Source: an uncultured Gammaproteobacteria bacterium (GTDB taxonomy: Bacteria; Patescibacteriota; Microgenomatia; CAZETR01; Amesbacteraceae). From it: a DNA stretch of 64,000 bases. Of the stretch, positions 1 to 52,940 are shown piece after piece. The DNA is taken from the NCBI GenBank assembly GCA_964356705.1, contig CAYHIN010000001.1, forward strand, positions 3,066 to 67,065, written 5' to 3'. The translations under genes were made by a program, and so were the position numbers. Each line of letters opens with the position of its first letter. Within the stretch, counting starts at the first letter, position 1. Below the pieces are notes generated by a model. The model worked only from the letters and a program-made list of their open reading frames with translations. It was not told the origin of the DNA and did no database searches.

Positions 1-29
1 TCGTAGCGTAGCGAAGACGGCAATCTATT

Positions 30-1042: not shown

Positions 1043-1458
1043 TGATATTTGTGGAGATGGAGGGAATTGAACCCTCGTCTGATTAAGGATTGAGTTTCAG
1101 TTGTTACAAGCTTGTCTGGCTTTTAAGAAAGCTAGCAAAAATGATTGACTTCTCTTGATCTAACCGCGATCAATCAATCTTAGTTAGAAGCATCTCGATT
1201 GGTTGTCACTTCAAACTACAGTCGAGAAAATAGTTTGAAATGCCAGTTAAGCTGCGTACGCGTAAACGCGAGCGGAGCGAGGCTGGGAGCTGACGGCGGA
1301 AGCCATGTCAGATCCGATTACTCGGAACCTAGAGGCCACGACGTTAGCCGTGTTGACGAAAGCGTCGACACTTAACTTTTGAACCTGTTTTACGAGTGTT
1401 GTTCAAACTCGGCTTGCTGAAATTTCAAAGGGCTTAGTCATCGATGCCTAGCATCCCC
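1043..1458 (-). ncRNA. ssrA: tmRNA (ssrA)
   Basis: On the minus strand the 5' GGGGATG pairs with the 3' CATCTCC(A), which is preceded by a T-arm GAGGG-TTCAATT-CCCTC. An internal reading frame ends ...YAYAA-TAA. It lies immediately downstream of smpB on the same strand. Confidence 0.7.
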
Positions 1459-1504: not shown

Positions 1505-1951
1505 TTACTTCATCTCCCTCTCCATATCCCGCTCCACATCAGCCTGCTTGATACTCTCTCTTTTTTCATACTTTTTCTTCCCTCGAGCCAATCCCAGCTC
1601 CAGCTTCACTTTCCCATCTTTTGTATACATAGCCGTAGGCACGAGGAGTAGCCTGGACTGTTTCATTTTTGAAGCCAGTTGCACTATCTCCTTTTGATGC
1701 AAAAGCAGCTTGCGTTCATGCCCCGGGTCATAATTGGTGTTATCCGCGTGTTTATAAGGATAGATGTGGATATTGATACTAAATACCTCCATCGCTCCAA
1801 ATTTGGATGTCCTGATCTTGGCATACGCATTTCCTAGATCCACTCCTCCCGCCTTGGCCGATTTCACCTCAGGTCCTGTCAGGACTATCCCTGCCTCAAC
1901 CCTCTCCGCGATGTCGTAGTTAAATCTAGCTTTTTGATTAATGACCCTCAC
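1505..1951 (-). CDS. smpB: SsrA-binding protein SmpB
   Basis: 148 aa. MRVINQKARFNYDI...GIVLTGPEVKS is a canonical SmpB N-terminus. Confidence 0.9.
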   Translation of the reverse strand: MRVINQKARFNYDIAERVEAGIVLTGPEVKSAKAGGVDLGNAYAKIRTSKFGAMEVFSINIHIYPYKHADNTNYDPGHERKLLLHQKEIVQLASKMKQSRLLLVPTAMYTKDGKVKLELGLARGKKKYEKRESIKQADVERDMEREMK

Positions 1952-3707: not shown

Positions 3708-4391
3708 TTATTCTCCTCTCTCCCTTCTCTTTTCGAGCTCTTCAGATAACTCCGAGATTATTCTGATAGCCCGGTCCGGAAATGGTACCGCCAGCCCTTC
3801 TACCACCTGGTGTTCAGCCGCCGTTTCTACGTGTAGATCTCCAAAATCAAACATATGTCTAAAAAATCCTCCCGTGATCGCCGTTGGCTGCTCAATATGA
3901 TTTAAGTTGGCATACGATACATGCCGGTATAACAAGTTATGAAAATCGATATCTACTATTCGCTCATTAGTGATAACCAGTACCGAGTAATACCACTTCA
4001 AAAATCGCTCTAAGGTAATCCCCATAGTTACCAGGTACCACACCATCTTGCCTACCCACACATATTCAAACGGCACCGGAGCAAAAATCCCCGTCATGCT
4101 TAGTACTTCTGGCAAAACTAGCATCCCAAGGACCATGAGTATCCAAGTCAGGTTCGTAATCGGATGAGCGCGCAATAGCAGCACTATCTCTTCATCTCCT
4201 TGCTGGTTTACAAACTTTTTCCCCGGTCGCACACAATACGCCCCCATACATTCTCTTCCTCCCTTTTCTCCCACCCGCCCGAGCACCTCATCTACTACTG
4301 TCTTATGATGTTTTGCACCAGACTGAGACACAGGAGTAGAAACCACAGGAGGCACTACTTTTCCATCTTGAGCAACATACACCTCCGGCAT
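3708..4391 (-). CDS. membrane protein with bacterial PH (bPH_2/YdbT-like) domain
   Basis: TM helices followed by ...VLVITNERIVDIDFHNL..., which resembles DUF304/bPH. Confidence 0.45.
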   Translation of the reverse strand: MPEVYVAQDGKVVPPVVSTPVSQSGAKHHKTVVDEVLGRVGEKGGRECMGAYCVRPGKKFVNQQGDEEIVLLLRAHPITNLTWILMVLGMLVLPEVLSMTGIFAPVPFEYVWVGKMVWYLVTMGITLERFLKWYYSVLVITNERIVDIDFHNLLYRHVSYANLNHIEQPTAITGGFFRHMFDFGDLHVETAAEHQVVEGLAVPFPDRAIRIISELSEELEKRRERGE

Positions 4392-9764: not shown

Positions 9765-9821
9765 TTCCTTAGTACTTTGCACTTAGCTCTTAGCACTATA
9801 TAATAAACTTAATGAAGGGAG

Positions 9822-10256
9822 GTGAATAATCAAGTGAGCAAAATACAAAAAATAATTCAGTTTGGGACCGCTTTGGGTACAGTATTGGCAGTCAACCCTG
9901 CTTCCGTTCTGGCCCAAGGAGCTTTTGATCCCACAGACAATGTAAATATCGCTCCCGAAGCAGGCGTTTTCAGCAAACTACCTGGTCTTCGTCCGTCCGC
10001 TTTCATTAGTGGAGCCATCAGTTTCCTGCTCGGAGTAGCAGGTGTAGTCGCCTTTATCTTCCTACTTTGGGGAGGCCTACAGTGGATCCTCGCCGGTGGC
10101 GACAAAGAAGGTACCGAAAAGGCTCGCAAGAAGATCACCTCCGCTCTCATCGGTTTGGCGATCGTCTTCTCAGCTTACGCTTTGATCTTCATCATCCAAG
10201 CGTTGTTCAACATCAGTGTCCTTGAAGTGTCTCTGAAACCACTAGGTAATCTCTAA
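9822..10256 (+). CDS. VirB2/TrbC-like T4SS pilin paralog with clear signal peptide
   Basis: Signal ALGTVLAVNPASVLAQG, then TM - AGGDKEGTEKARKKITSALIGL - TM. Confidence 0.65.
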   Translation: MNNQVSKIQKIIQFGTALGTVLAVNPASVLAQGAFDPTDNVNIAPEAGVFSKLPGLRPSAFISGAISFLLGVAGVVAFIFLLWGGLQWILAGGDKEGTEKARKKITSALIGLAIVFSAYALIFIIQALFNISVLEVSLKPLGNL

Positions 10257-20279: not shown

Positions 20280-21338
20280 ATGGAGCAACATGCAGTTCCT
20301 CAAAACATATCGTCGTACGAATTTCGCCTAGTAGGAGACATGACTCTCAAGCAGTTCTTTCAGCTGGCAGGCGGCATTGTTTTAGGGGTCGTCATTTTTC
20401 GCCTCCCCATTCCCGTTTTTATCAAATACCCTCTTGTTTTTATCTCAGTCATCGTGGGTGTTCTCATGGCCTTTGTTCCCATCAACGGTCGCCCTTTCAC
20501 CGCCTGGATCACTGCTTTTTTTAGAGCTATCTATGCTCCCACCGAATTTTTATGGGCTCCGGATACAGAGATTCCAGTTGCCAGCAACATTGCACCCATA
20601 ATTAGCGCCACCTCTCCTTTTCATTCCACCACCACAAATTCAAACACCCCGTCCACGCTTAGCGTGGACAAAGGAACGCTTAGCGTTCCAGCTCCAACTC
20701 AAAAAATTCCCTCTCCTGGATCAGGAGAGGGCAAGGGTGAGGTTTTGAAGGAAATACCCATGACTCCCGTAGTTTCCATGCCGAAACCTACAACCAAAGA
20801 AACTACTTTCAGTTCCTACACGCCACCACCTGCTACGCTTAGCGTAGCAAAAGGGACGCTTAGCGTTCCCAAACCAGTCATTGAACCAAAGTCAGTCATA
20901 GAACCCAAACCAATTTCTCCTATACAAGTTCCCTCTCCTGAATCAGGAGAGGGCCAGGGTGAGGTCGTCGGCCCCGTCACCCAACCTCTAAAAAAACCAG
21001 TCCCAGAGATCAATCTTCCCCAAGTTCCAGCAGCATCCAGCGCGACATCAGAGACCCAAAACGTTCCCACTCCCACTCAACCAAATGTCCTGGCCGGCAT
21101 GGTCACTGACCGTTCTGGAACAGCTATCGAATCTGCCATAGTCGAAATTATCGATAGTGTCACCCAGATTCCAGCCAGAGCCTTACGCACAAATCGCACC
21201 GGTCTCTTTCAGATTGTTACTCCTTTGAAGCCATCTAGTTACCAGGTCATAGTCGAAAAAGAAGGCCTTACATTTCCTCCAGTCAGCATCGTGGCAAATG
21301 GAAAAATTATCCAACCCATAATCATTAAAGCCACATGA
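20280..21338 (+). CDS. VirB3-like membrane protein with C-terminal extension (tandem 70-aa repeats plus CarboxypepD_reg-like beta-sandwich)
   Basis: N-terminal two TM helices as in VirB3/PrgI. Internal duplication TLSVxKGTLSVP...PSPxSGEGxGEV. C-terminal GMVTDRSGTAIESAIVEIID... Confidence 0.5.
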   Translation: MEQHAVPQNISSYEFRLVGDMTLKQFFQLAGGIVLGVVIFRLPIPVFIKYPLVFISVIVGVLMAFVPINGRPFTAWITAFFRAIYAPTEFLWAPDTEIPVASNIAPIISATSPFHSTTTNSNTPSTLSVDKGTLSVPAPTQKIPSPGSGEGKGEVLKEIPMTPVVSMPKPTTKETTFSSYTPPPATLSVAKGTLSVPKPVIEPKSVIEPKPISPIQVPSPESGEGQGEVVGPVTQPLKKPVPEINLPQVPAASSATSETQNVPTPTQPNVLAGMVTDRSGTAIESAIVEIIDSVTQIPARALRTNRTGLFQIVTPLKPSSYQVIVEKEGLTFPPVSIVANGKIIQPIIIKAT

Positions 21339-22003
21339 AACCCTCTACACAATCCCATTTAGATATCTACGACATCCAAAACGATCTACTGATCCTCAAG
21401 GACGGCTCAGTGTGTCTCCTCTTGGAGGTCTCCGCTATCAACTTCGGCCTCTTCTCCGAAAGAGAGCAAGAAGCCACCATTTATGCATATGCTCAGTTGC
21501 TCAATTCTCTCAATTTTACGATCCAAATAGTCATCACCAGCAAAAGAAAAGATATTACTGATTATCTAGACAAGCTCGAGGTCAGGCTATCATCTGCCCC
21601 TTCCCCAAAGATCAAAGACCAGCTTCTCAAATATCGCGATTTTATAAAGTCCATCGTCCGCCAGGGTAATGTCTTGGACAAGAAATTTTTCATTTCCATC
21701 CCCTTCTCGTCTCTGGAATTAGGTGTCAGCTCAGCTCTCAGTGCTTTTTCAAAAAAACCCACCAAGCCCCTCTCTCCTATCCCCACGATAGTCGAAAGAG
21801 CCACAAACAATCTCACTCCCAAACGAGATCATTTGATCAGATTGTTAGCCCGGATCGGCCTCAAATCTCGCCAGCTCGGAACCCTTGAGCTTCTCCAATT
21901 GTTCTATGACTCCTACAACGCCACAGATTTGGGTACCAAGGTGACACTTCCCATACAAGCAGGTGTCATCCTGAGCGAGCGTACACCTAAACCAACATCA
22001 TGA
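21335..22003 (+). CDS. probable N-terminal fragment of VirB4-family ATPase
   Basis: DIQNDLLILKDGSVCLLLEVSAINFGLFSEREQEATIYAYAQLLNSLNFTIQIV resembles the N-terminal region of Gram-positive VirB4 homologs. ATGA overlap with the following ATPase ORF. Confidence 0.45.
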   Translation: MKPSTQSHLDIYDIQNDLLILKDGSVCLLLEVSAINFGLFSEREQEATIYAYAQLLNSLNFTIQIVITSKRKDITDYLDKLEVRLSSAPSPKIKDQLLKYRDFIKSIVRQGNVLDKKFFISIPFSSLELGVSSALSAFSKKPTKPLSPIPTIVERATNNLTPKRDHLIRLLARIGLKSRQLGTLELLQLFYDSYNATDLGTKVTLPIQAGVILSERTPKPTS

Positions 22004-23880
22004 AATTCCCAACTCTCAAAATCCCAAACATAAAGAAAAGTCATCTACCCTCTCCTGGCGAAGGAGAGGGACCGAGGGTGAGGTTAACAGAGCCAGTCTC
22101 AAAAAAATCCCTCACCACCGCCAAAACTGTCCGCGACATCATCGCCCCTTCCTCTATCTCCATCGATTTCAACTATCTCAGACTTGGCGATCTCTACTAC
22201 CGCACCTACTTCACAAATATCAATCGCCGCTTTGTCGATGCCAACTGGCTCTCAGCTCTCATCAATTTCGACCATTCGCTCAACATCTCTATGTTTATTT
22301 ATCCCGTCGAAAGCAAAAGCACTCTCGATGATCTCAGAAGAAAAATCGCCGAAATGGAAGCCGAGATCAGTACCGATATGCAAAGAGGCCGTGTCGTCGA
22401 TCCCTCGACCCAAGCTAAGCTCGAGGACGCCCTTTCTCTCCAAGACCAGCTGGTCAAAGGCATTGAACGTTTCTTTCAGTTTTCCCTCTATGTTACGATT
22501 CCTGCCGAATCCTCATCAGAGTTGGACAATGTCGCAAAACAGGTCACGAGCACTCTTTCCTCACTCCAGCTCACAGCCACTCCCGCCCTTCTGGAGCAAG
22601 CCGAGGGTTTCAAGACCACTCTCCCCACTTGCGTCGACCATTTGGGCGTTCTCCGCAACATGGATACTACATCCCTTGCTACTACTTTTCCTTTTACCTC
22701 ATCTGAGCTTTCCAGCAACGATGGTGTGCTATATGGTCTCAATGAGCACAACGGCAGTCTCGTTCTCTTTGATCGCTTTAGTCTAGAAAATGCCAATACG
22801 GTAGTCTTTGCCAAGGCTGGGGCTGGAAAAAGCTTCCTGGTCAAGCTCGAGATTCTAAGGTCGACCATGTTCGGCACCGAGATTATCATTATTGATCCCG
22901 AAAACGAATACAAAACTCTTTGTGAGGCCGTGGGTGGTGAATACATTAACTTCTCTTTCAATTCCCAAAACCGCATCAATCCTTTTGACTTGTCGCTTCT
23001 GACCCAATATTCCGACGAAAACGAGCTCAATCTCAAGATTCAGTCTCTCCACTCCCTCTTCAAAGTCATCATGGGCAACCTCAATCCTACCGAAGACGCC
23101 CTTCTCGACCGTGCTCTTACCCAGACGTACAAAATGAAGGGTATTACTCCGGACCCTGAGACTCAAAAAAAGACTCCTCCTCTTATGGAGGATCTCTACA
23201 AAGCCTTTGTGGGCATGGAAGACCCCGAAGCCAAGTCTCTGGCCGACCGCATCGAAAAGTTTGTCAAGGGTTCTTTTGCCGGCATCATCGACCAGCCTAG
23301 TAATATCACTCTCAAAAATCCCTTTACCGTCTTCTCTGTCCGTGATCTGGAGGATTCTCTCAAGCCTATCGCCATTTTTATTATTCTCGACTTCATCTGG
23401 ACCAAGATGAGACGCGACCTCAAAAAGCGCATTCTCGTCGTAGACGAGGCTTGGTATCTCATGCGCTATCCCGATTCCGCCGCCTTCTTATATGGTATTG
23501 CCAAGCGCGCCCGCAAGTATTTCCTCGGCTTGACCACTATTACCCAAGACGTCGAAGATTTTCTGGCTTCTGATTATGGCAAACCCATTGTCACCAACTC
23601 TTCTATTCAGATTCTCATGAAGCAGTCTCCTGCGGCAATTGACAAAGTCGCCCAACTCTTTTACTTGTCAGAGGGAGAAAAGCATCTCCTACTCTCAGCC
23701 AACGTCGGAGAAGGTCTGTTCTTTGCGGGCAACAATCACGTCGCCATCCGATTTGTAGCCAGTCCTGACGAATATCAGTTGATTACCACCAAGCCAGGCG
23801 ATATTCTAGCCAAACAGAAGACCGATGCTGAAAACGCAGTTCGTCTAGTTACTCAAGAAGAACCCACCCAAAATGCCTGA
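22000..23880 (+). CDS. virB4: VirB4/TrbE/ConE-family T4SS ATPase (C-terminal two-thirds)
   Basis: Walker A VVFAKAGAGKSFLVK and Walker B ILVVDEAWYLM. 626 aa; together with the upstream fragment about 848 aa, a typical VirB4 size. Confidence 0.8.
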   Translation: MKFPTLKIPNIKKSHLPSPGEGEGPRVRLTEPVSKKSLTTAKTVRDIIAPSSISIDFNYLRLGDLYYRTYFTNINRRFVDANWLSALINFDHSLNISMFIYPVESKSTLDDLRRKIAEMEAEISTDMQRGRVVDPSTQAKLEDALSLQDQLVKGIERFFQFSLYVTIPAESSSELDNVAKQVTSTLSSLQLTATPALLEQAEGFKTTLPTCVDHLGVLRNMDTTSLATTFPFTSSELSSNDGVLYGLNEHNGSLVLFDRFSLENANTVVFAKAGAGKSFLVKLEILRSTMFGTEIIIIDPENEYKTLCEAVGGEYINFSFNSQNRINPFDLSLLTQYSDENELNLKIQSLHSLFKVIMGNLNPTEDALLDRALTQTYKMKGITPDPETQKKTPPLMEDLYKAFVGMEDPEAKSLADRIEKFVKGSFAGIIDQPSNITLKNPFTVFSVRDLEDSLKPIAIFIILDFIWTKMRRDLKKRILVVDEAWYLMRYPDSAAFLYGIAKRARKYFLGLTTITQDVEDFLASDYGKPIVTNSSIQILMKQSPAAIDKVAQLFYLSEGEKHLLLSANVGEGLFFAGNNHVAIRFVASPDEYQLITTKPGDILAKQKTDAENAVRLVTQEEPTQNA

Positions 23881-26800
23881 TTCCCCTCTCACTCAACTTG
23901 ATATCCAAAATCTAGAGTCAGCCATGCGCCTAGTCATCGAGGGCTATCAAAAAATCCGTTCAGAAAACCAAAGAGACATCTCCGAGTTTGACTTCTTTAG
24001 ATCAGAAATCCAACCTGTGTGGGATTGGGTCGGTCGGTATCTAACTCCATTTCAAATTCAAAAAATTCTGGGCGAAGCCTCTATTTCCTCCGAACACACC
24101 AAGGATGCCGAGAAAGAACGTGTTTTGGAAATCTGTGCAAATCTGCGAGCCAAGATTTTTAAAGAAATAAACAACTCCGATCTAGCTACCGTCCAAGAGC
24201 TTACTCAACAATGGGAAGAAGCAGAAAAAAATCTTTCCGCCCAACCCGACCCCGCCACTCAGTTTGTCACTCGCATCAAAAAAAGGTCTGCCATCTATGC
24301 CGCCAGGGCTTCTGTCGCCTCACTTCCTGAAAAAGAGATTCCGTCCACCCCGCCCCAGATTGATCCACGCATGGACGAAGTTATTGCTACCGCCTTCAAA
24401 GATATTCCTATACCAGACCAGGTCTCATTTCACAGAAAACTAGCTGATCTGGTCCAAAAAGCCAGCACCGCCTCTCCGGATGAATATCAAAGAATTACCC
24501 AGGAACTAGTCACTCACGTCGAAAAATCCACCGGCAGACCTCTCCCCCCGTCTCTACGAAAAGAGGTTCTTTCCTACATCCCACCCCTCGCCCGTCTTTC
24601 AGATTCAAAGATCACCCACGACCTTCAGTCGCTAGACACTCTAGAAGAAAAAGCTTTATATCTCCAAAACCACACGTCAGCCCATCTGACCCAAACCGAA
24701 GCCGTTGAGACAGCTCGTCAATATACCCAGCACGACACGGCTACCGTATCTCAAATAGTAGACACCATCCGGGATTTTTCCCACAACCAGGAGCTTACTT
24801 CCGCTCAGTCTACAAAACTAATTAATGAGATCTTGCCAGAGACTCTCCAAACCCACTCCAAAGAAACAGCGTCCAAACTGCTAACCCAAGTAAGATCTGT
24901 CCTCCCAAACCAAACTTCAGACCAAATCTCTAGCCTTACACAGGATCTCATCTTTTCCAAAGAATTCGCTTCTTCTGTCACTACCACATCTAAAGATGCC
25001 CCCAAGGAAACCTTCCTCGGCTCACTTCGCACTCTTATCCATCCCCATACCCTCCTTACCGATGCATCATCCATATCAGCCCAGTCGGGTGTTTCTTCAG
25101 AACTAATCACAAATCTTTTGATACAAACCCAATCTCAGGTTCTTACGCAAATTGCTACTCCAGAGTATGCCCAAAAATATATTGCTTACCTAGGCATTAC
25201 AGATTTTGATCCAGAAAGGACTCGCCAGATTGCAGATAGCGTACTCGAGGTCTTCACCAACCCAACTCTCTCTACCGCCACACCCCACATCACCACCTTT
25301 CTCACCACTCCCCCCAAACAAACACCCAAATATATCCAAAAAACGACTCTTGATTCAGTCGCCGAGGATTTTTCCAAAATTATTTCGGCAACCTTCCCCC
25401 AAAACTCTCCCGAGACCAAAATACTCACTGGTCTCATCCATCCTATTGCCAAAGGTCTGTCCATCTCACCAGAGTCAGCCCGAGACACACTTATTTCCAC
25501 AGTCAGATTAACCAACTATCTTTCCCCCTCAGCAAATACCAACCAGACTCTGGAAAAACTAGCTCCCATCATCGGTACTCTCCGCACAGTTCATCCAAAT
25601 ATCAAGCTCCTCACTTCATCTACCTCCTCAATTCTCCAAAGTCACACTACCCTCTCTAGTGCACAGCTCATTTCAGTGACAAATCAGTTTACTCTTAGGT
25701 ATCTTCTAAATCCCACCACAGATCCTCAGATATTTGCCAGCTATTTTGACAAAAGTATCCTTCCCCAGCTAGAAGCCCTCACTGGTCGTTCTATTTCACC
25801 TGAGAAGAGTCGCCAGATCTTTTCAGATCTTCACACTCATCTCCAGACCAATCCTCTTAGATTCACGGCAGACCAACAAGTCTTATCCTCACTCACCGCC
25901 CACTTCACCAAAGCCGGCCTCACCCCCGAGCAAGCCCGGGTTCTCGCTCCCAAACTACTCGATTCCGCCAAATTGAGTTTTTACTTCAGCGGATATACCC
26001 CTATAGGTAAAAATCTCGTTCACACCAAAGCCCTCCAGGCCCAATCTTTTAATAATATCTTCAAAGTCTCCTTAGAGAGTTTAATAGAAGCCAATCCAGC
26101 CCTCGCCAATCTCCGTTTTGGATATCTAAACTCCCGCAGAGTTTTTGAAGATCTCCACACTGTTTTAGGCAACCCTACTGCCTTAAGTCCCGAGTTTCTT
26201 ATCAAAATCCAGTCCCCAGTTATTTATTCTTTCACCAAATATTTAGAGGGCTACATTCCAGAACCCATCCGCCCAGTAGTGGCAGCTGCCGCCAAAACTC
26301 TACTTGGTAGTGCTTTTCTCACCTCAAAGTTTGCCGAACAGTCAGGATTAAGAAGTTTTGTTGCCGTCCTGGCCGCAGGTTCTACTAAACTTCGTCCCTT
26401 GGGTGTAGCCAGTGCCCTCAAGTTTTCCGGCAAAGGCGCCCTCCAATACAATCTCAGGTTTCTAAACAAATACACTGGCATGAAAGTAGCTGGGAATCCC
26501 GTAGCTCTGGCCTTCAGGAAAAATTTCCAAGCCCCAGTTTCAGCAGCCGTCAAGGGAGTTTGGACCAAATTTGCAGGTACAGCAGCCGGCAAAGCCATAA
26601 CTGCGGCAGGAGCAAAAATAGCTGCCAATGCCGCCCTTCAGCCCATTCTCCAGGCTATTGGCAGCGCCGCTCCCATCATTGGAAACCTCATTGCCCTTGC
26701 CGTCGGCTGGGTAGTAGGTGAGGTGCTCGTCAAGCTTATCGACCCGGCGATTCGATTTCTCAAAGAGCTAAAAGACAATATCATTCCCGGCGCCACGGCC

Positions 26801-35651: not shown

Positions 35652-36069
35652 CGACTCAATTTCAATATTTACCGATGGCGGCTCTCGTGGCAATCCAGGT
35701 CCAGCAGCCAGCGCCTTTATCATCTACGACTCATCAAACACTACTCTTCATCAACATGGTTTTTACCTAGGGATAGCGACAAACAACCAAGCCGAATACC
35801 AAGCCGTCATAGAGGCACTGAAGTATATACGTGATACTTTATACGAAATACATAATACAAACTTCTATCTCGATTCCGAGCTCGTCGTCAAGCAGCTCAG
35901 AGGCGAATACAAGATCAAAGATCCAAATCTTCAAACCAAATCTCAAGAGATCAAAAATATCATTTTCCTTCTTCCTTCTAATTCAGTTCGTTTTACTCAC
36001 GTACCTCGTGAACAAAATTCCGCCGCCGACGCACTTGTAAACAAAACCCTCGATAGCTTGTCATCCTGA
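35644..36069 (+). CDS. rnhA: ribonuclease HI
   Basis: IFTDGGSRGNPGPAA...NNQAEYQAVIEAL...SAADALV. The stop codon lies inside a family E repeat. Confidence 0.85.
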   Translation: MTNDSISIFTDGGSRGNPGPAASAFIIYDSSNTTLHQHGFYLGIATNNQAEYQAVIEALKYIRDTLYEIHNTNFYLDSELVVKQLRGEYKIKDPNLQTKSQEIKNIIFLLPSNSVRFTHVPREQNSAADALVNKTLDSLSS

Positions 36070-36289
36070 CACTGAGCGAAGTCGAAGTGGAAGGACCCAG
36101 TCCTCATTAAGAAAAAGACATCAAATTCCCCGCGTTTCTTAGCCAGCGGTAGTTTCACGTTTTATGTACTGACATAAATAGAATTGATGCAGGCATAAAT
36201 CATCGACAGTTACAAAGCTAAGAAATTCGTAATGACACAATATATGTAGATCTTCTACATTTACCGCTACTTGGTATACAATCAATAGG

Positions 36290-38524
36290 ATGCCCAAATT
36301 GTTTCTAATTCCCGAAATTGAGTCCCAAAATATTCAAGTTTTTCTCAATATCGAGCACCATCCTTTAGCCATCGAAATCACAAACCAGCTCTCAAATCTC
36401 AAGCATGTTCAGCTCATAAAAAAATCATCAGACGCCGACGTCACTATTTATCTTGTAGGTTTTGATTCCCCTTCTCTTTCCGAGACCTTGTCCCACACCT
36501 CAGATCTCTATGAACATCTCAAGCAGGTCAAGTCAGATCATCACAAGTTCATTTTGGTGGTAAAAAACCCCGCGTCTCATTTGTCTCGAACGGCAATTAC
36601 TCTTACCAATCAGTTTGCTCACAACTATGACCTAAATCATGAGGTGTTCGAGTATGATCACACCGTCTCCACATCTCAATTGGCCGAGACCATTATTCGC
36701 AAATTTATATATGGACATTCGACCCCTCACCAAGAACCTCGGTCAAGCTCAATAAAGACACCTACTGCAAAAGCCATTCCCCTCGTTTCCAAGCCTCAAT
36801 ACATGATACTTAATACGTTATACCTAATACTCGCTCTTGCCACTCCTTGGCTACTTTCGATTCTATTGTTAGTCTTTATGTATCCACTCACCTCATGTCT
36901 TCACAGATACTCTGTATGTACTAGCGTGACCGACGTTAGTCTTTCAGCCTTTCGATATACTTCCCGACTTAGCCCTGGTTCTTCCGAGCTCGCCACTCAG
37001 ATCGGCCTTCCGCTGTCGCAGTACAAAGATCTCATCATTACTTTAAAAAAACTAGATCGTCTGACCACCAAATCGGCCAAGAGATCCTCCGCGTTTCTAG
37101 CCAGCCTCTTCACAACGAGACCTGCTCCTCAGACAGCAGAAATCACAGCTTCTCTAGAAGAGACCGACCATTTGCTAAATCAGGTTCAAGCCGACCTTAG
37201 GTCAATATATCTTGCCACACCCAATCACATAAGATCCTTCGAGAGTCTAGCCGTAGGCGCAGGGGAATCTCGCCACACTCTCAGTCTTCTTATCCCAAAC
37301 ATTACAAGTACATTGAGAAATTTCACCAGTGGCAAAAAAACTTATCTAGTGGCTTTGCAAGACAACTGGGAGCTCAGAGGCAGCGGGGGACTGATAGAAG
37401 CTTTTCTCAAAGTCGATATCTCACATGGCCAGATCGATCAGTTTCAGCCTTTTTCAACTCGCGATACAGATAAGCTTCTCACAGGCACTGTCACCACCCC
37501 AGCCGATTTTCAGGATCTGACCGACCAGACTCAATGGTACCTGCGCGACGCCTCATGGGATCCCAATATCTCATCCACGCTGACCAAGATTGCTTGGTTT
37601 GCCCAAAAAGAGCTCAACCAACCCTTCGATGGAGTCATCCTAGTGGATCTAAACACTCTCAAAGAGTTGGTCAGGATAATTGGCTCCGTCCAGGTGGGGG
37701 AGTCTAAAGTTCCAGTCACCGCCCAAAACTTTTCCGCGATATATCAGTCCCAACTAAATTCATCCGATGATTACAACAAATATCTCACCACTCTTCTGAG
37801 TGCCATCTTTGCCCAATTTAGTAATATGGACGATCTTAAATATCAAAAAGTAATTCAGCTTTTTTATACCCAAGTAGTCACTGGCCAGGTCTTCATCACC
37901 GGTCTCGCAGAAGGGGAGAAGGGGCTTCCGGAGTGTCGCAGTTTTCTGATATGTTCCGTAGACTATGCCTACCCCGTATCATCAAACATCACCGGTTCCA
38001 AGACCAATCTTTATCTGACCAGATCTCATACCGCCTCTGTTAGTCTTTCAGATTCCCAAAACACTTCTCTTCACACTTTTTCATATCGTTATTCACCTGA
38101 GGCAAATTCTTGGGTAGGCCAAAACCACCAAGAATACCTGCGGCTATATTTACCAGACGACGTGCTCTCGGACTATCAAGTTTCCATTGACGGAGTAGCC
38201 ATTCCAAAAGACTCGATACATATCGGAGTCTCCCAAGGGTCAAAATATTTAGGAGTCAGTTTCACAGTAAATAAGTTGCAAGATGTCAAAGTCCAATTTA
38301 GCTATCACACTCCCATGCCCAAGGCCAGCCAGTTCCACTATCAGCTCGACATTCCCAGCCAGCCCGGCGTAGTAGGGGACCAGGTAAAAGTAGAATTAAA
38401 CTATCCTCCTACTTGGGCCGCCTTAGTAGACAAAGTCGCCTCAGTTGCTGATGCTGGCCGTCTCGAGTATAATTACGCCCATCCCGAGAAGTTCCAGCTC
38501 AATATTGATTTCACAAAACCTTAA
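36290..38524 (+). CDS. large hypothetical protein with internal TM (possibly DUF4012-like)
   Basis: 744 aa with a TM around aa 185-205. Contains a family D repeat insertion. Confidence 0.5.
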   Translation: MPKLFLIPEIESQNIQVFLNIEHHPLAIEITNQLSNLKHVQLIKKSSDADVTIYLVGFDSPSLSETLSHTSDLYEHLKQVKSDHHKFILVVKNPASHLSRTAITLTNQFAHNYDLNHEVFEYDHTVSTSQLAETIIRKFIYGHSTPHQEPRSSSIKTPTAKAIPLVSKPQYMILNTLYLILALATPWLLSILLLVFMYPLTSCLHRYSVCTSVTDVSLSAFRYTSRLSPGSSELATQIGLPLSQYKDLIITLKKLDRLTTKSAKRSSAFLASLFTTRPAPQTAEITASLEETDHLLNQVQADLRSIYLATPNHIRSFESLAVGAGESRHTLSLLIPNITSTLRNFTSGKKTYLVALQDNWELRGSGGLIEAFLKVDISHGQIDQFQPFSTRDTDKLLTGTVTTPADFQDLTDQTQWYLRDASWDPNISSTLTKIAWFAQKELNQPFDGVILVDLNTLKELVRIIGSVQVGESKVPVTAQNFSAIYQSQLNSSDDYNKYLTTLLSAIFAQFSNMDDLKYQKVIQLFYTQVVTGQVFITGLAEGEKGLPECRSFLICSVDYAYPVSSNITGSKTNLYLTRSHTASVSLSDSQNTSLHTFSYRYSPEANSWVGQNHQEYLRLYLPDDVLSDYQVSIDGVAIPKDSIHIGVSQGSKYLGVSFTVNKLQDVKVQFSYHTPMPKASQFHYQLDIPSQPGVVGDQVKVELNYPPTWAALVDKVASVADAGRLEYNYAHPEKFQLNIDFTKP

Positions 38525-38542
38525 ATCGAAACACAATCACAA

Positions 38543-39223
38543 ATGGACAAACACATTATCCCAGTTCAAGCTCGCACGATTACTGGTCGTGGTGTAAAAC
38601 AACTCCGTGCGGCAGGGTTAGTCCCAGCTCATATCTTTGGAAAAAACCTGGAATCTATTTCTATTCAGCTCAACTCCAAAGACTTCTCAAAGCTGTTCAA
38701 AAAAGTCGGAGAGTCAGCTCTTTTTTACCTTCAGCTTGAGGACAACAAGTCAGAGCTTCCAGTCCTAGTCAAAGAAGTCATGGTCCACCCCGTCTCCGGC
38801 CAATTACTCCACATCTCCTTTTACCAAGTAGATCTCAAGACAAAAGTTACCACCAAAGTCCCAGTCGAATTAGTAGGGGAGTCGGCAGCCCAAAAAGACG
38901 GCACCGGTGTCTTGGTCCAGCAGTTAGACGCCATCGAGATAGAAGCTCTCCCGACCGACATTCCCGAGAAGATTCAGCTCGACATAACCGGTCTCTCCGA
39001 GGTTGGTTCATCTCTCCATGTCAGTGACATCTCAGTCAACACTTCCAAAGTCACTATTCTGACCGAAGCCGATGCCCTTATCGTTCAGATCTCAGCTCTC
39101 GCCAAAGAAGAAGTAGCCGAACCAGTAGCTCCCGCCGAAGGGGCTGAAGGTGAAGCCGCAGCTCCAGCTGAAGGCGAAGCCGCAGCTACTGAAGAATCCA
39201 AGTCAGAAGAAAAATCTGAATAA
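38543..39223 (+). CDS. rplY: 50S ribosomal protein L25 / general stress protein Ctc
   Basis: MDKHIIPVQARTITGRGVKQLRAAGLVPAHIFG... with an acidic Ala/Glu-rich tail. Confidence 0.85.
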   Translation: MDKHIIPVQARTITGRGVKQLRAAGLVPAHIFGKNLESISIQLNSKDFSKLFKKVGESALFYLQLEDNKSELPVLVKEVMVHPVSGQLLHISFYQVDLKTKVTTKVPVELVGESAAQKDGTGVLVQQLDAIEIEALPTDIPEKIQLDITGLSEVGSSLHVSDISVNTSKVTILTEADALIVQISALAKEEVAEPVAPAEGAEGEAAAPAEGEAAATEESKSEEKSE

Positions 39224-39262
39224 CCACTTCTTGTCATCCTGAGGCGCACCGAAGGATCCAGT

Positions 39263-41410
39263 TTATTTACTTGGCCACTTACTCGTTATCAACATCTCTT
39301 TCTCTCCTAGTTCACTCCATATAGCTTCCGTCACAAACGGCATAAACGGATGAACCAATTTCAAAAATGTTTTCAGTCCTTTTGAGAGTGCAGCGGCCGA
39401 TACTTGTCCATCCCTTTGCAAATTAATCTGCTTATCACAAAACCAGTGCCAAAACTCTTCGTAGACCGTTTCTGCCGCTTGTCCGATTCGATATTTTTCT
39501 AGATCACTCGTTACTTTTTTGACCACTTCATTCACATAGTTTTCAAACTCCAGGTCCAATGGCGCATTTAGATTTTCCGTCTTCATCATCTCCACATATC
39601 TCGCTGAATTCCACATCTTGTTACTAAAGTTTCTATATCCTCTTATTCTCTCTTCCATTTGTTGCTTGGAGATAAGTAGATCATTCCCATTGTCTCTTCC
39701 AGCCGAGATTCCCATTCGCACGGCATCCGCGCCATATTTCTCTATTGCCTCATTTGGATTCACCCCATTACCCTTAGATTTGCTCATCTTTGCACCAGTA
39801 TTATCTCTCAAGACCCCATTGATCAGGGCGGTTTCAAATGGCACCTCTCCGGTCAGATATAGTCCAAACATAATCATGCGGGCCACCCACAAAAACAGGA
39901 TTTCATAAGCCGTGTTCATGACCGTCGTAGGGTAAAACTTTTCAAAGTCTCTCACACCTGAAGTTTTGAGGGTATTTATTGGCCATTGGCCAGAAGAAAA
40001 CCAAGTGTCAAAAGTATCTGGGTCCTGTATTACCTCGTCACCCTCCGGTTTTTCGATAGAAACAATAGGGGACTCTAGTGCGTCTGTTCGAGCCCTGGTA
40101 TCACCATTTTTCAGCTTTTCCCATTCTGAGAGTTGATCACCAGTCAGTTGGTCGCTTTTTCGATACCACACCGGCAGTTGGTGTCCCCACCAGATTTGTC
40201 TCGAGATGGGCCAGTCTCGGATGCTTCTCATCCAGTTAAAGTACATTTTTTCGTATTTTTCAGGAGTTATTTTTATTCTACCTTCTTCGACAGCTGCGAT
40301 TGCCGGCTCTGCCAGTTTCTTAGTCGAGATAAACCATTGTCTGGACACCAGTGGTTCGATCACGGTTCCGCACCTCTCACAGGTCGCCGCCGCATGCACA
40401 TAATTCTCATCTATCCTTTCGATCAAACCAAGGGTTGTCAGGTCGGACACAACCACCTCTCTGGCTTCTTTGGTCTTCATGCCAGCATATTTGCCAGCCT
40501 CTTTTGTCATCCGTCCGTCAAAGTCCACCGCTTGGTTGATAGGCAGTCCCAGTTTTTGCGCCACTTCAAAATCCGTCATGTCATGCGCTGGAGTCATCTT
40601 GACGACACCCGTACCAAATCCAGGTTCCACAAATTCTTCCCCGATTATTTCCATCTCTGCCCCAGTCAGGGGGTTCTTCACCGTCTTTCCAACCAGATGG
40701 TTATTCTTTTTATCTTTAGGATTTACAGCCAAGTGAGTATCCACCCAGATTGGTTCAGGTCTGGTTGTAGCCACCACCACACATCCCTCTTCCCAGGTTT
40801 TGGGATATCGTACATAGTACAGTTTTGTCGTCTGTTCATTGTGTTCTAGTTCTACGTCGGCCAGGGTGCTTCTACACCTAGGACACCAGTTGACGATTCT
40901 ATAGCCTCGGTATACTAGCCCATCTTTATGCATCTTTATAAAAGTTTCATAGACTAGGTCTGAGATCTGTGGGTCTAGAGTAAATTTTTCGCGAGACCAG
41001 TCACAAGAGGCTCCCAAGCCCTTCATCTGGTTCTCCATACTCACTTTGCAATCTATCGCAAACTCATAGCATCGTTTATAAAACTCGTCTCGTCCCAGAT
41101 CGTGTCGAGATTTTTTTTCATCTTTGAGCAACTTTTTCTCAAAAGTTACTTGGGTTTGAATACCAGCATGATCCACACCCGGCAGCCACAAAGTCGGGGA
41201 GCCGTTCATTCTTTTATAACGGATCAAGATATCAGATATCGCAATAAATGTGGCATGTCCCAAGTGCAGTTCTCCGTTCGCATTTGGTGGCGGCATGATA
41301 ATACTAAAAGGCTTTCCCTCGCCCTTAGGCTCAAAAGCCCCAGATTTCATCCACTTCTCGTAGATATCCTTTTCGTATTTCTGATGTTCGTATGCTTTAT
41401 CCATAATCAA
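39263..41410 (-). CDS. valS: valine--tRNA ligase (short form lacking C-terminal coiled coil)
   Basis: HIGH motif PPPNANGELHLGHA and KMSKS motif KMSKSKGN. Confidence 0.7.
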   Translation of the reverse strand: MIMDKAYEHQKYEKDIYEKWMKSGAFEPKGEGKPFSIIMPPPNANGELHLGHATFIAISDILIRYKRMNGSPTLWLPGVDHAGIQTQVTFEKKLLKDEKKSRHDLGRDEFYKRCYEFAIDCKVSMENQMKGLGASCDWSREKFTLDPQISDLVYETFIKMHKDGLVYRGYRIVNWCPRCRSTLADVELEHNEQTTKLYYVRYPKTWEEGCVVVATTRPEPIWVDTHLAVNPKDKKNNHLVGKTVKNPLTGAEMEIIGEEFVEPGFGTGVVKMTPAHDMTDFEVAQKLGLPINQAVDFDGRMTKEAGKYAGMKTKEAREVVVSDLTTLGLIERIDENYVHAAATCERCGTVIEPLVSRQWFISTKKLAEPAIAAVEEGRIKITPEKYEKMYFNWMRSIRDWPISRQIWWGHQLPVWYRKSDQLTGDQLSEWEKLKNGDTRARTDALESPIVSIEKPEGDEVIQDPDTFDTWFSSGQWPINTLKTSGVRDFEKFYPTTVMNTAYEILFLWVARMIMFGLYLTGEVPFETALINGVLRDNTGAKMSKSKGNGVNPNEAIEKYGADAVRMGISAGRDNGNDLLISKQQMEERIRGYRNFSNKMWNSARYVEMMKTENLNAPLDLEFENYVNEVVKKVTSDLEKYRIGQAAETVYEEFWHWFCDKQINLQRDGQVSAAALSKGLKTFLKLVHPFMPFVTEAIWSELGEKEMLITSKWPSK

Positions 41411-41533
41411 TTAAATTTGTTTCGCATGATTAACTTCTTTAAAAAGCGGGCAAATTTAATATACATCGTTTTGTGTGCAAAACGACAAGTATATGAGAAA
41501 TTGCACACTAATTTCTCATATCATAAAAAACAA

Positions 41534-41572
41534 AAAACCCCGTTAACTAACGGGGTTGCGGCTTCGCCTCGC
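41534..41572 (-). terminator. rho-independent terminator (minus strand)
   Basis: 7-bp GC-rich stem AACCCCG/CGGGGTT with an 8-nt loop, followed on the minus strand by TTTTTTGTTTTTT. Confidence 0.5.
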
Positions 41573-41729
41573 CGTAGCTTCATGCGTAGGCGGGACTAGA
41601 GATACCACCTCAACCAATACTTAATTTCGATTTGGCTCCTCGGTGACAAGTCGGATCGTAGCCTACTACACAAATTATACACCAAGGACTATTTACAATT
41701 TCCACTAGTCGGAGTAAAACAGATTAGAG

Positions 41730-42329
41730 ATGAATATCAAAGTCATAGTCGCAATTGCCATAGCCCTAGCTCTTCTGGGCGGCGGAGCCTTCTTTGTTCT
41801 CAGAAAGCCCGCGTCTACTGACAACCAACAACTTACAACTGACAACTCTCAGCCCAGCTCTCCTCAGTCACTCCGCGATTTGTTCGCCTCCGCAGTCGCC
41901 CAGACCTGTACTTTCTCAGATGCAGAGTCAAATTCAGCCGGCACAGTCTATGTCAGCGAAGGCTTGGTCAGAGGTGACTTCGAAGTAAAATCCGGCGAGA
42001 CCGTGACTACCAATCACATGATCATGTCAGACAACACTATCCACTTCTGGCAAAACGGCTCCACCGAAGGCTTCAAGATGGCCCTCGTTCTCCCTTCCGG
42101 CACGGAAGTAGATTCCACCACCACGGCCACAAATCAGGTAGATCTAGATAAAGAAGTAGATTACTCTTGCTCAGTTTGGGTTGCAGATCAGAGCAAATTC
42201 ACGCTACCGGCTGACGTGACCTTTACCGATCCCTCAGCCATGATGAAAGGCGTAGATTGTTCCGCCTGTGATTCAGTGCCAGAAGGTACAGCTCGCACCC
42301 AATGCCTCACCGCTCTCAAGTGTAACTAG
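41730..42329 (+). CDS. secreted/membrane-anchored hypothetical protein
   Basis: N-terminal TM/signal, 199 aa, 5 Cys. Confidence 0.45.
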   Translation: MNIKVIVAIAIALALLGGGAFFVLRKPASTDNQQLTTDNSQPSSPQSLRDLFASAVAQTCTFSDAESNSAGTVYVSEGLVRGDFEVKSGETVTTNHMIMSDNTIHFWQNGSTEGFKMALVLPSGTEVDSTTTATNQVDLDKEVDYSCSVWVADQSKFTLPADVTFTDPSAMMKGVDCSACDSVPEGTARTQCLTALKCN

Positions 42330-43386
42330 CATCCACTCTCCACCTTGGCATCCTGTCGATATCTTCAGACTTTGCATATTCGCCTCGTTCCGCTTTAAAT
42401 CCCGCCACGACCCCGATCATGGCTGCATTATCAGTGCACAGCATCATATTCTCTGGAAACCTTACACTTACACCTATCTCACTACCCATTTCACACAACT
42501 TATCCCTAAGCATCATATTGGCCGCCACTCCACCCCCGACCAACAGGTCATTTATCCTTAGCGCTTCGCGCTTAGCACTTAGCACTTTACTTGTAATCCT
42601 CACCACATGCTTAAACACCATCGCTTGAAATGATGCCGCCAAATCCTGTTTCTGTTCCTGAGTCAGTATAGTGTCATCCTGAGCTTGCGAAGGATCCAGA
42701 GATTTAACTAGTCTATAAAACGCGGCCTTAAGTCCCGAATAGCTAAATCTATTATCTTCTTTTCCAGCCATAGGCAAGGGGAGGGGATATTTTTTCGGAT
42801 TTCCAAGTAGCGCCAGTTTTTCAAAAGCTGCTCCCCCCGGGTAGGGCAGTCCCAGCATCCGCGCGGCTTTATCGAGTGCTTCGCCTATGTTGTCATCCAG
42901 GCTCTCAGCCAGTATTTTATATTTCCCAATTTCTTTGATTTCAATTACTTGTGTATGCCCACCCGATATCACCAGCGCCGCACACGGAAAGCTCACGTCA
43001 TCCTGAGGCGCACCGAAGGATCCAGTTTTAATCATCGCACTGAGGGCGTGCCCCTCGATGTGATTGACTGCAATCAGTGGTTTACTATATTTAGCCGCCA
43101 GCTCTTTGGCCTTTGCAATTCCCACACCCAGTGCAATTCCCAGTCCCGGTCCCTGGGTTACCGCTACGACATCAATATCATCCATTGTCATTTGTGCATC
43201 GTCCATTGCTTTTTCGATCACCCAATCAATATTTTTCTCATGATCCCGCTTGGCGAGAGAGGGGACCATCCCGCCCCACTGTCCATGAATTTCTTGTGTG
43301 ATTCGCACTGATGAGATAACGTTGAGTCCCTCAGTCACCGCAGCAGCCGTTTCATCTGCCGAGGTCTCCACTGCAAGTATTCTCAT
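42316..43386 (-). CDS. tsaD: tRNA N6-adenosine threonylcarbamoyltransferase TsaD
   Basis: MRILAVETSADETAAAV... Kae1/TsaD family. Carries three in-frame repeat insertions (families C and E). Confidence 0.9.
   Translation of the reverse strand: MRILAVETSADETAAAVTEGLNVISSVRITQEIHGQWGGMVPSLAKRDHEKNIDWVIEKAMDDAQMTMDDIDVVAVTQGPGLGIALGVGIAKAKELAAKYSKPLIAVNHIEGHALSAMIKTGSFGAPQDDVSFPCAALVISGGHTQVIEIKEIGKYKILAESLDDNIGEALDKAARMLGLPYPGGAAFEKLALLGNPKKYPLPLPMAGKEDNRFSYSGLKAAFYRLVKSLDPSQAQDDTILTQEQKQDLAASFQAMVFKHVVRITSKVLSAKREALRINDLLVGGGVAANMMLRDKLCEMGSEIGVSVRFPENMMLCTDNAAMIGVVAGFKAERGEYAKSEDIDRMPRWRVDASYT
42556..42590. repeat. heptamer-tandem element family C (CTTAGCG/CTTCGCG/CTTAGCA units) inside tsaD
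   Basis: Copies at 9767-9800 and 15226-15280 (intergenic), and 35494-35530 (coding). Confidence 0.7.
42997..43025. repeat. palindromic element family E (GTCATCCTGAG-N8-10-GAAGGATCCAG)
   Basis: Copies at 21965-21985 (partial), 34438-34465, 36060-36100, 39233-39261 and 42673-42699. The 39233 and 42997 copies are identical over 32 nt. Confidence 0.8.
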
Positions 43387-51669: not shown

Positions 51670-52432
51670 CGCCCGTTCTTACTTCGCCCAGTTCAGCTAT
51701 CCTATTACCAAATCCGAAGCAATCTATTGGCAATCCCCATTCGCACCTTCACGTCATTCCCGATCTAATCGGGAATCCAGTCTCATTCGCAAACAACGCT
51801 TTGTTTTTTCAAAACCAAAATGGCAGATCGCCAAAAAAATAGGAGAGTCTCTTTCTCACATCCCAACAATCCAAGCTATTTTTGTCACCGGCGCCCTCTC
51901 CATGGACAATTGTCCCGAGGACGACGATATCGACATCATGCTTGTGACCCGCCCCCACACTCTTTGGCTTACCCGTGCCATAGTAGTAGTCTATCTCACT
52001 TTAAAAAATCTCCGTCGCCCTCCCTCGCTTCCCGAGCACTCGTCGCCTCGGGTAAAGGACAAAATCTGCGACAATCTCTACCTCGATGCAAATAGCTTAA
52101 GGCTAACGACTAATGACTTATACATCGCGCACGAAATTCTTCAGGCCAAATGCATCTTTGACCGCGGCGGCATCCATCACCAGTTCTTAGCTCAAAATTC
52201 ATGGGTAAAAAAATACCTCCCCGTAGCCTACAAACAAACTCTCTCTAGCCTTGTCATGCTGAGTCGCAACGAAGCATCCAGGCCCAATCTATTATTCAAA
52301 ATTCTCAATTCACTATTCTTTTTACTCCAGTATTCCTACATGAAGCCCAAGATTACTCAAGAAAAAATCACCCTCGGCTCCGCCTTCTTCCACCCCAGAT
52401 CTAGTATCTCCGCTTCTCAAGACGCTTTTTAA
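51617..52432 (+). CDS. nucleotidyltransferase-domain protein
   Basis: FVTGALSMDNCPEDDDIDIMLV matches the Pol-beta-like NTase motif (GS...DxD). Confidence 0.45.
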   Translation: MLSWASMASAQPPKSLSNARSYFAQFSYPITKSEAIYWQSPFAPSRHSRSNRESSLIRKQRFVFSKPKWQIAKKIGESLSHIPTIQAIFVTGALSMDNCPEDDDIDIMLVTRPHTLWLTRAIVVVYLTLKNLRRPPSLPEHSSPRVKDKICDNLYLDANSLRLTTNDLYIAHEILQAKCIFDRGGIHHQFLAQNSWVKKYLPVAYKQTLSSLVMLSRNEASRPNLLFKILNSLFFLLQYSYMKPKITQEKITLGSAFFHPRSSISASQDAF

Positions 52433-52940
52433 ATAGATTCTCTGTATATCCACCTTCGTTAATAAATTTATTCTCAAGGGATCTCGTCAGTTGATCCAGT
52501 AAATAGTTTTCTTTATAAAGTAGCACAACCATCAAGTTTGCAAACCCTTGTGCTTCTTCAAGATATTTCCCATACGGCGAATTTGCCCAATTGGCCGAAT
52601 TAGTCCAATTCGGACCTTCTCTAATAGACCTGAGTTCTCTTACTCGCTGGTCCTCTTTCTCCCACAGTTTCAAGCCATGCTGACGCAGGTAGTCCTTAAA
52701 ATCCTCGAGCAGTTCACCAAAAGATCCTCTAGATACTCCTGTCAACTTTATTTGGCTTTTTAGACTTTTCTCCAGGCTTCCCTCAGCTATGTTTTGCTTA
52801 CCCGATCTTGCCGCTTGCACCATTTGATCATGTGTTCGCGATCTTTTGTCTATGTATCTGTCACAAAAAATCACAGTCAAGTCATAAATCGTCGTCGCCA
52901 AGCGAAATACTATCAGATTTTCATACCCGCCATTTCCCAT
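52401..52940 (-). CDS. four-helix-bundle protein (TIGR02436-like)
   Basis: RSGKQNIAEGS motif. Carries a family F repeat insertion (NWTNSANWANS). Confidence 0.55.
   Translation of the reverse strand: MGNGGYENLIVFRLATTIYDLTVIFCDRYIDKRSRTHDQMVQAARSGKQNIAEGSLEKSLKSQIKLTGVSRGSFGELLEDFKDYLRQHGLKLWEKEDQRVRELRSIREGPNWTNSANWANSPYGKYLEEAQGFANLMVVLLYKENYLLDQLTRSLENKFINEGGYTENLFKKRLEKRRY

Follow-up and report, generated by a model that had tools for sequence, protein, structure and literature searches.

The repeat described here, a hairpin of about 28 nt scattered through a 64,000-nt stretch (hereafter the window) of contig CAYHIN010000001.1 from a groundwater (Hainich) Patescibacteria/Microgenomates genome, probably has its closest described relatives in the hairpins recognized by Ssn, a family (cd10448) of ~94-aa single-domain GIY-YIG nucleases. 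These hairpins, NTS (CGTCAT-TCCCGCG-MAV-GCGGGA-ATCYRG) and the 'Ssn-related motifs' (SRM), flank the nuclease genes in an SRM-ssn-SRM arrangement (Chenal et al., Nat Commun 2025, PMC11893778). Ssn binds the forward strand only, as single-stranded DNA (ssDNA), cuts a few nucleotides upstream, and lowers transformation by NTS-bearing DNA; cleavage of ssDNA, but not of double-stranded DNA or RNA, was reported for four Ssn/SRM pairs, and SsnA does not bind RNA. Cutting is governed by the three bases that precede the palindrome on its 5' side, and SsnA binding depends most on the C that directly follows it. SRMs are required to be imperfect inverted repeats of 20-50 nt, 2% of N. meningitidis NTS are reported within coding sequence, and the authors themselves remark on a resemblance to repetitive extragenic palindromic (REP) sequences and REPINs (PMC11893778). 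The CGTC-tagged palindromic repeats surveyed by Di Nocera, De Gregorio and Rocco represent an earlier catalogue of the class, intragenic copies included, and were concluded to be without a dedicated tyrosine transposase (BMC Genomics 2013, PMC3733652).

The repeat in the window, labeled 'family E' in an initial annotation and here called the E-type hairpin, is an oriented DNA element of the form YGTCAT-CCTGA-[GC stem/loop]-GAAGG-ATCCAG. Exact matches to GTCATCCTGAG-N6-14-GAAGGATC occur three times in the window and never in 100 dinucleotide shuffles, and looser, structure-aware patterns match seven times against 0.03-0.05 expected. A covariance model (R1) built from 37 diverse E-type copies (alignment A2) detects exactly eight full copies at E<=0.005, ranging from 27 to 41 nt, and no others at E<=1 (Table 1). 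The initial annotation was thus right that a non-random hairpin repeat is present, though its six copies included one (21965) that is only a 5' half, and three full copies (35022, 35056 and 52253) had been overlooked. By our estimate the exact 11-mer in that half copy is expected ~0.03 times per window. The copy at 35056-35083 is the sole full copy on the minus strand; six of the eight overlap the coding sequence (CDS) of a recognized gene, and the copies at 39233 and 42997 are identical over exactly 32 nt, as had been noted from the sequence at the outset.

All window copies share one fold, in which the unit Y-GTC-AT(N)CT-GA-[2-4 bp stem + loop]-GA-AG(N)AT-C-(Y)(R)G forms a 9-bp interrupted stem (AT(N)CT-GA-GC / GC-GA-AG(N)AT) with a conserved tandem G·A/A·G mismatch. 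Base pairing extends to 95.4% of cells in the set of 37 distinct copies, a level reached in 0 of 500 shuffles, and five of the seven stem pairs carry double-sided compensatory changes (38 cells); when the alignments are slid as a control, this pairing signal collapses. Stem positions left free in the search still covary (C-G 69, T-A 22, G-C 9, with non-pairs in 4 of 104), and the ATTCT/AGAAT and ATGCT/AGCAT stem variants within the window are themselves compensatory. The GA/GA internal loop is present in 37 of 43 copies not chosen by the scan pattern and is Watson-Crick in just one. The tag starts with GTCAT in seven window copies and ATCAT in the other; the base preceding GTC is T in seven (the minus-strand copy included) and C at 42997, with T or C also prevailing in other phyla. 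T4, C5, A6 and T7 are invariant in alignment A2 and G3 is at least 90% conserved, and the C following AGGAT is likewise invariant; the tail in the window reads ATCCAG in six copies, with ATCTAG and ACCCAG once each. Because compensatory changes preserve the stem while tag, tail and tandem G·A mismatch all stay fixed, it is a hairpin that is under selection.

On balance we favor the view that the E-type hairpin is an ssDNA hairpin repeat of the NTS/SRM class (earlier, the CGTC-tagged REPs), in a variant form. With NTS/SRM, and with dRS3 of Neisseria, it shares a ~28-nt oriented hairpin, a (C/T)GTCAT tag, AT at the start of the palindrome, an obligatory C 3' of it and an ATC-Y-R-G tail. E-type copies have the (H)GTC(W)(Y) tag upstream of the palindrome, the C with ATC-Y-R-G tail 3' of it, and the imperfect inverted repeat of 20-50 nt by which SRMs are recognized. 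Both kinds of hairpin are dispersed in many copies, often as inverted pairs, through many phyla, and both flank small single-domain GIY-YIG genes of ~80-96 aa (for the E-type, in other phyla). They differ in the stem, which has the tandem G·A/A·G mismatch (CTGA...GAAG) in the E-type but is perfect and GC-rich in NTS, and in setting, the E-type being found here in Patescibacteria with a far larger share of copies overlapping CDS than in N. meningitidis (six of eight versus 2%). The CGTC-tagged REPs of the 2013 survey are likewise short (C)GTC-tagged stem-loops, many in opposite pairs, mostly downstream of open reading frames (ORFs) with some intragenic, and no dedicated tyrosine transposase; in contrast, the E-type tag is mostly TGTC, with CGTC in one of eight window copies. 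Palindromes with more than one stem mismatch were dropped from that survey, so a family with a tandem mismatch would largely have been filtered out.

Family E is not private to this lineage. A scan of one genome per species with the pattern GTCATCCTGAG-N5-12-CGAAGGATC returned at least 120 stretches (837 kb of loci), and among the matches listed almost all bacterial phyla are represented by hairpins with the same 20 specified bases, which are mostly arranged in inverted pairs and lie in both coding and non-coding contexts; those listed include Chloroflexota, Acidobacteriota, Bacillota, Bacteroidota, Planctomycetota, Cyanobacteria, Omnitrophota, Verrucomicrobiota, Gemmatimonadota, Nitrospirota, Fibrobacterota, Bdellovibrionota, Alphaproteobacteria and Patescibacteria. 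Among these listed matches, 43 of 60 close pairs are head-to-head inverted pairs 10-100 nt apart. A literature search by E-type sequence words gave only primer noise with 10-mers and nothing relevant with 15-mers. In other phyla we also observed runs of two to four 5' half copies in tandem (each GTCATCCTGAGC with 7-9 variable nt) before a full hairpin, in arrays that are mirrored at the far end of ~300-nt composite units and are reminiscent of Neisseria NIME arrays (L045 360-430 and 700-760, L085 1-120, L019 5660-5720, L030 7530-7760).

All-against-all clustering of ORFs across the 120 listed element-bearing loci yielded no recurrent transposase. The only recurrent small element-flanked gene in them encodes a GIY-YIG protein, and it is this lead that links the repeat to the Ssn/SRM system. 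All four small GIY-YIG ORFs in these loci (L009, L077 from Hymenobacter glaciei, L093 and L075) have E-type hairpins within 4-74 nt, on both sides in L009, L077 and L093, the downstream side in L075 lying beyond the locus edge. The window contains a GIY-YIG gene of its own near its start (30-272), with homologs 70-79% identical in many Microgenomates, whose product is a candidate Ssn-like partner of the E-type repeats. The partial hairpin 8 nt upstream of its start codon is not of E type; it is of the GTA/GAA type also found upstream of homologous GIY-YIG genes in the Candidate Phyla Radiation (CPR), and this type is not repeated within the window. In two CPR loci such homologs lie directly downstream of a tRNA gene, and two or three small hairpins of the form stem-GTA-GC...GC-GAA-stem come after them; these loci are L127 (9780-10000) and L128, which has two such genes in a 6-kb span (9780-10000 and 3960-4180). 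The window gene also abuts a ComFC-like gene (273-989, minus strand; double zinc ribbon plus phosphoribosyltransferase, a competence protein), a suggestive neighbor given that transforming ssDNA is a substrate of Ssn nucleases.

Several observations weigh against placing the E-type hairpin with NTS/SRM. The published SRM string, HGTCWYN(0-2)YYVSBRHN(0-5)WNVSBRGN(0-2)RNCYNB, matches nowhere in the window and in none of six copies taken individually; it fails because of the CTGA...GAAG mismatch core, the CTGAG segment violating YYVSB. No E-type hairpin stands on the visible sides of the window's GIY-YIG gene, and its CPR homologs have no E-type flanks, carrying GTA/GAA hairpins beside tRNA genes; since the gene and its homologs are associated with that other hairpin, its product is only a putative E-acting nuclease in this genome. 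Across phyla, moreover, the orientation of copies relative to local GC skew is not significant (61:43, p=0.095).

Genes around the copies were identified from Pfam and NCBIfam profiles (jag/khpB, a Wzy_C-like membrane protein, rnhA, DUF4012, L25/Ctc, leuS, tsaD and a VirB4-like ATPase), and the window was compared with two syntenic relatives, L122 (TsaD 65% identical) and L125 (GCA_964543035.1; Jag 86% identical). L122 has no E-type copies and L125 has seven, all on the same strand. The yidC/jag spacer contains an E-type element in L125 and none in the window, while the L25/leuS copy (39233) has an ortholog in L125 that differs by a compensatory apical-stem change (GG/CC versus GC/GC). The inverted pair at 35022/35056 lies in a variable loop between membrane segments of the Wzy_C-like gene product; L125 has one copy at about the same place as 35022 and lacks the 35056-35083 partner.

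In tsaD, two in-frame copies had been recognized from the sequence; both are read on the minus strand as part of the protein, and their sites are empty in relatives. Both inserts are missing in L122 and not recognizable in L125. At 42673 L125 shows a clean 21-nt difference (GTCATCCTGAGCTTGCGAAGG), with ATCCAG already at the empty site, and L122 TsaD has a gap; at 42997 L125 is shorter by 7 aa and L122 by 9 aa. The T. maritima TsaD of solved structure has gaps at both insert sites, that at 42997 being of seven residues. In turn, a third tsaD site is occupied in L125, by a long-loop E-type copy of 66 nt (L125 19026-19084) read as GIEPGRDPSTAPSPTDSRFAS; the corresponding site in the window (~43183-43195) retains TGTCAT, is 5 aa longer than the outgroup, and may be an excision footprint. 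E-type copies have thus been gained and lost between close relatives, inside genes in multiples of three. The recent mobility proposed in the initial annotation finds support to the extent that these site differences, together with the pair identical over 32 nt, are signs of recent turnover; the target-site duplications for which it suggested a search are absent from the copy flanks.

Both jag and rnhA terminate in ...TCA TCC TGA (SS*), and the stop in each is the element's own TGA, as was originally proposed. It had further been proposed that insertion replaced the native C-termini of the two proteins, and for jag this is incorrect. The jag element (34438) is orthologous to one at L125 10475-10503, which lies 9 nt past jag's own TAG; in the window a 4-nt deletion (TAGT) relative to L125 removed the native stop, so that the ORF was fused to the element's TGA and gained the tail PETVSS. 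Fourteen other Jag orthologs end in ...(I/V)SPK/R, most with just one to four residues beyond. For rnhA the end is indeed element-derived, but 'replacement' overstates the change: the element touches just the two or three terminal residues, and the arrangement is common to L125, whose orthologous copy also provides the stop (..LSS*). A coincidental SS* ending shared with unrelated orthologs is not what we find, given that the rnhA outgroups L122 and L123 end in TLDAQ* and MDRRH* and Jag orthologs in ...ISPK(A).

The position of copies at gene ends invites the explanation that the hairpin works in RNA, as an mRNA 3'-end stabilizer, a processing site, or a protein-binding tandem-G·A (K-turn-like) hairpin. 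Three sense copies do lie at or just past the 3' ends of jag, rnhA and L25, all of them on the plus strand, tandem G·A pairs are frequent protein-binding motifs in RNA, and E. coli REPs are capable of such action. We nevertheless regard an RNA-level role as unlikely. Both tsaD copies are antisense and internal, on the strand that is sense to jag, rnhA and L25; strand bias is pronounced (seven of eight window copies and seven of seven in L125 on one strand, or ten of eleven distinct sites when the two are pooled) and holds whatever the gene direction. Inverted pairs contain both orientations, yet the G·A pairs are possible on one strand only. There is no Rfam match at the gathering threshold or at E<=10, no E-type copy is among the terminator-like sites of the window and none has a T-tract, and folding energies are no better than those of shuffles (z -0.06 to -1.34). 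Since the strand bias ignores gene sense, and both an Rfam match and a terminator signature are lacking, the E-type hairpin is neither a terminator nor a known RNA family and is better read as acting at the DNA than at the RNA level, consistent with the failure of SsnA to bind RNA (PMC11893778).

Among specific structures considered and rejected, a K-turn is incompatible with the symmetric internal loop, which has no asymmetric 3-nt bulge, and a hammerhead or other ribozyme, of whose core CUGA...GAA is reminiscent, would require U7, G8, A9 and stem I, which are missing, and has no Rfam match. The consensus sequences of attC, dif and oriT nic sites do not fit the E-type hairpin either.

A second alternative is a classical REP/REPIN mobilized by a RAYT, that is, an IS200/IS605-type Y1 HUH transposase recognizing the hairpin in ssDNA. 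REP/REPIN-RAYT systems and BIMEs of Proteobacteria resemble the E-type repeat in being ssDNA hairpins with inverted doublets, a trans-acting domesticated nuclease and no target duplication, and the spacing of inverted doublets (10-100 nt, as in REPINs or BIMEs) and the strand bias agree with such an origin, as does the resemblance remarked on in the Ssn paper (PMC11893778). They differ, however, in tag (GTAG, as opposed to YGTC), in enzyme (a Y1 HUH transposase, as opposed to a GIY-YIG partner) and in range, being species-specific where the E-type sequence is shared across phyla. The 837 kb of listed loci contain no recurrent transposase, GIY-YIG being the sole recurrent element-flanked small gene, and the CGTC REPs were themselves concluded to lack a dedicated tyrosine transposase (PMC3733652). 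We consider a RAYT-driven origin quite improbable.

Larger palindromic elements are more doubtful still. The E-type copies could in principle be miniature inverted-repeat transposable elements (MITEs), solo terminal repeats of a DDE insertion sequence, or protein-coding palindromic elements such as those of Rickettsia (RPEs), which were reportedly described by Ogata et al. in 2000 and 2002 as Rickettsia-restricted, in-frame insertions of 100-150 bp. Inverted pairs, and larger composite units with terminal half-copy arrays (L045), speak for this, and the in-frame insertions recall RPEs, which the 2013 survey also mentions (PMC3733652). Both are palindromic repeats found in frame in functional, even essential genes of reduced genomes that leave little room between genes, and both encode surface peptide segments. 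But the E-type unit, at 28 nt, is far below the size of MITEs (70-300 bp) or RPEs, is pan-bacterial where RPEs are lineage-restricted, and has a defined tag and tail; its flanks lack target-site duplications, no transposase recurs in the element-bearing loci, and one copy type is read in four different frames, which implies that no peptide is selected. We therefore give this explanation very little credence. A chance or convergent coding motif, for which only the short length speaks, can be virtually dismissed given its absence from shuffles, a 32-nt identity joining an intergenic to an intragenic copy, orthologous sites that are empty in relatives, and its presence in coding and non-coding contexts across phyla.

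Table 1. E-type hairpins, related hairpin sequence and associated genes in the 64,000-nt window
Position	Strand	Feature	Evidence and reading
1..25	+	3' part of related hairpin (..GTA-GC-GTA-GC-GAA-GACGGC-AATC), cut by window edge	8 nt upstream of GIY-YIG start codon
30..272	+	GIY-YIG nuclease gene, 80 aa, single-domain	element-flanked-ORF HMM E=7e-7; PF01541 E=9.4e-13
21335..23880	+	virB4-like gene, two ORFs (21335-22003 and 22000-23880)	different frames
21965..21981	+	5' half copy, 17 nt (GTCATCCTGAGCGAGCG), no 3' arm	read as VILSER; below covariance-model detection
33968..34447	+	jag/khpB, KH + R3H domains	native end ...ISPK intact, plus 6-aa tail PETVSS ending in element
34438..34465	+	E-type copy, jag/khpB 3' end	43.2 bits, E=1.4e-7; TGA 34445-34447 is jag stop
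35022..35049	+	E-type copy, ATTCT/AGAAT variant, inside Wzy_C-like gene	E=2e-6; in-frame IILSETKNP
35056..35083	-	E-type copy, inverted partner of 35022 (head-to-head)	E=2.9e-7; in-frame RSFTAFRMT
35644..36069	+	rnhA (RNase H), complete domain	last residues LSS* from element
36060..36100	+	E-type copy, 41-nt long-loop, rnhA 3' end	E=0.0048; TGA 36067-36069 is rnhA stop
39233..39261	+	E-type copy, intergenic, between L25/Ctc stop (39223) and leuS stop (39263, minus strand)	covariance model
42316..43386	-	tsaD with two in-frame element-derived inserts	frame check and alignments
42673..42699	+	E-type copy inside tsaD, antisense to gene	in-frame LDPSQAQDD
42997..43025	+	E-type copy inside tsaD, antisense to gene	in-frame GSFGAPQDD
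52253..52281	+	E-type copy, ATGCT/AGCAT stem, unannotated ORF or spacer	E=2.2e-6

In one gene the repeat is associated with loss of the reading frame. The first virB4-like ORF matches N-terminal positions of the VirB4 profile and the second matches positions 182-752, and where the two meet, the sequence is made up of the E half copy (VILSER) together with a second-family hairpin at 22040-22095 (read as PSPGEGEGPRVR). With fragments in different frames and a junction built of repeats, virB4 is genuinely interrupted by repeat-derived sequence; the split reported in the initial annotation, and the repeat next to it, are real, although the E-type sequence there is a 5' half rather than a copy. The second family, CCCTCTCC-loop-GGAGAGGG followed by N3-4 and GGGTGAGGT, has four copies in the window against none in shuffles, all on the plus strand (393-414, 20710-20730, 20932-20952 and 22049-22069); two are inside a PrgI-like ORF (20280-21338) and one is in the N-terminus of the C-terminal virB4 fragment, and GTCAT precedes the hairpin at 22040.

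Other features of the window are recorded here for completeness. GC skew is very strongly negative in every 2-kb bin of 1-64000 (-0.07 to -0.42), independent of gene strand, and keeps its sign through the divergent dnaA-dnaN / rnpA-yidC-jag locus, the expected place of an origin (dnaN 28209-29333 and dnaA 29553-30914, both minus strand; rnpA/yidC/jag 32658-34447, plus strand). A tmRNA gene (Rfam RF00023, 89.9 bits; 1049-1458, minus strand) is adjacent to an ORF that looks smpB-like from its sequence, no domain search having been made (1505-1951, minus strand), and a tRNA is encoded at 60470-60540 (minus strand). The 52253 copy lies ~120 nt downstream of a minus-strand ORF (52401-52940) resembling 23S rRNA intervening-sequence proteins (PF05635); PF05635-like ORFs also occur near the GIY-YIG genes of L128 (367-714 and 19872-20291), which may be coincidence.

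If the E-type hairpin does belong with NTS/SRM, Neisseria SsnA offers a possible model of how it behaves. By that analogy, binding of the forward strand by a small GIY-YIG nuclease would require the strand to be single-stranded, as in replication, in recombination or in incoming transforming DNA; the enzyme would nick it a few nucleotides upstream of the hairpin, and cutting would trim repeat-bearing ssDNA or limit its recombination. The element probably also spreads, or is removed, via such ssDNA intermediates. In this gene-dense genome the surviving copies are those in spacers, at gene 3' ends, or in frame within tolerant protein loops (tsaD, Wzy-like); two of the six frames of the element carry a TGA that can serve as a stop, and a frame-breaking copy coincides with the split virB4. 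Going further, we tentatively raise the possibility, less likely than the class assignment itself, that the tandem-G·A hairpin is a distinct pan-bacterial SRM subtype that is both restricted and moved by a small GIY-YIG nuclease through ssDNA. If true, a GIY-YIG enzyme and not a transposase would be driving a non-autonomous mobile element able to insert at, or excise to, short microhomologies (ATCCAG at one empty tsaD site, TGTCAT at another), which would account for clean in-frame gain and loss in essential genes and for the tandem 5' half-copy arrays seen elsewhere.

As a probable member of the NTS/SRM class, the E-type hairpin would extend the Ssn/SRM system to a variant that is invisible to the published search pattern and yet conserved nearly base for base across most bacterial phyla, the CPR included. 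SRM censuses, and hence the reach of Ssn-type ssDNA nucleases, are probably underestimates, and the invariant tandem G·A mismatch, as a putative recognition feature, could give a new specificity for ssDNA tools. In coding regions the repeat resembles RPEs and intragenic REPs in its behavior. It accounts for recurrent 'junk' peptides in predicted proteins (VILSEAKD, HPERSEGS, GSFAALRMT, ...QDD). In compact genomes it also explains where some stop codons and short C-terminal tails come from, why essential genes such as tsaD have insertions in loops, and why at least one gene is split.

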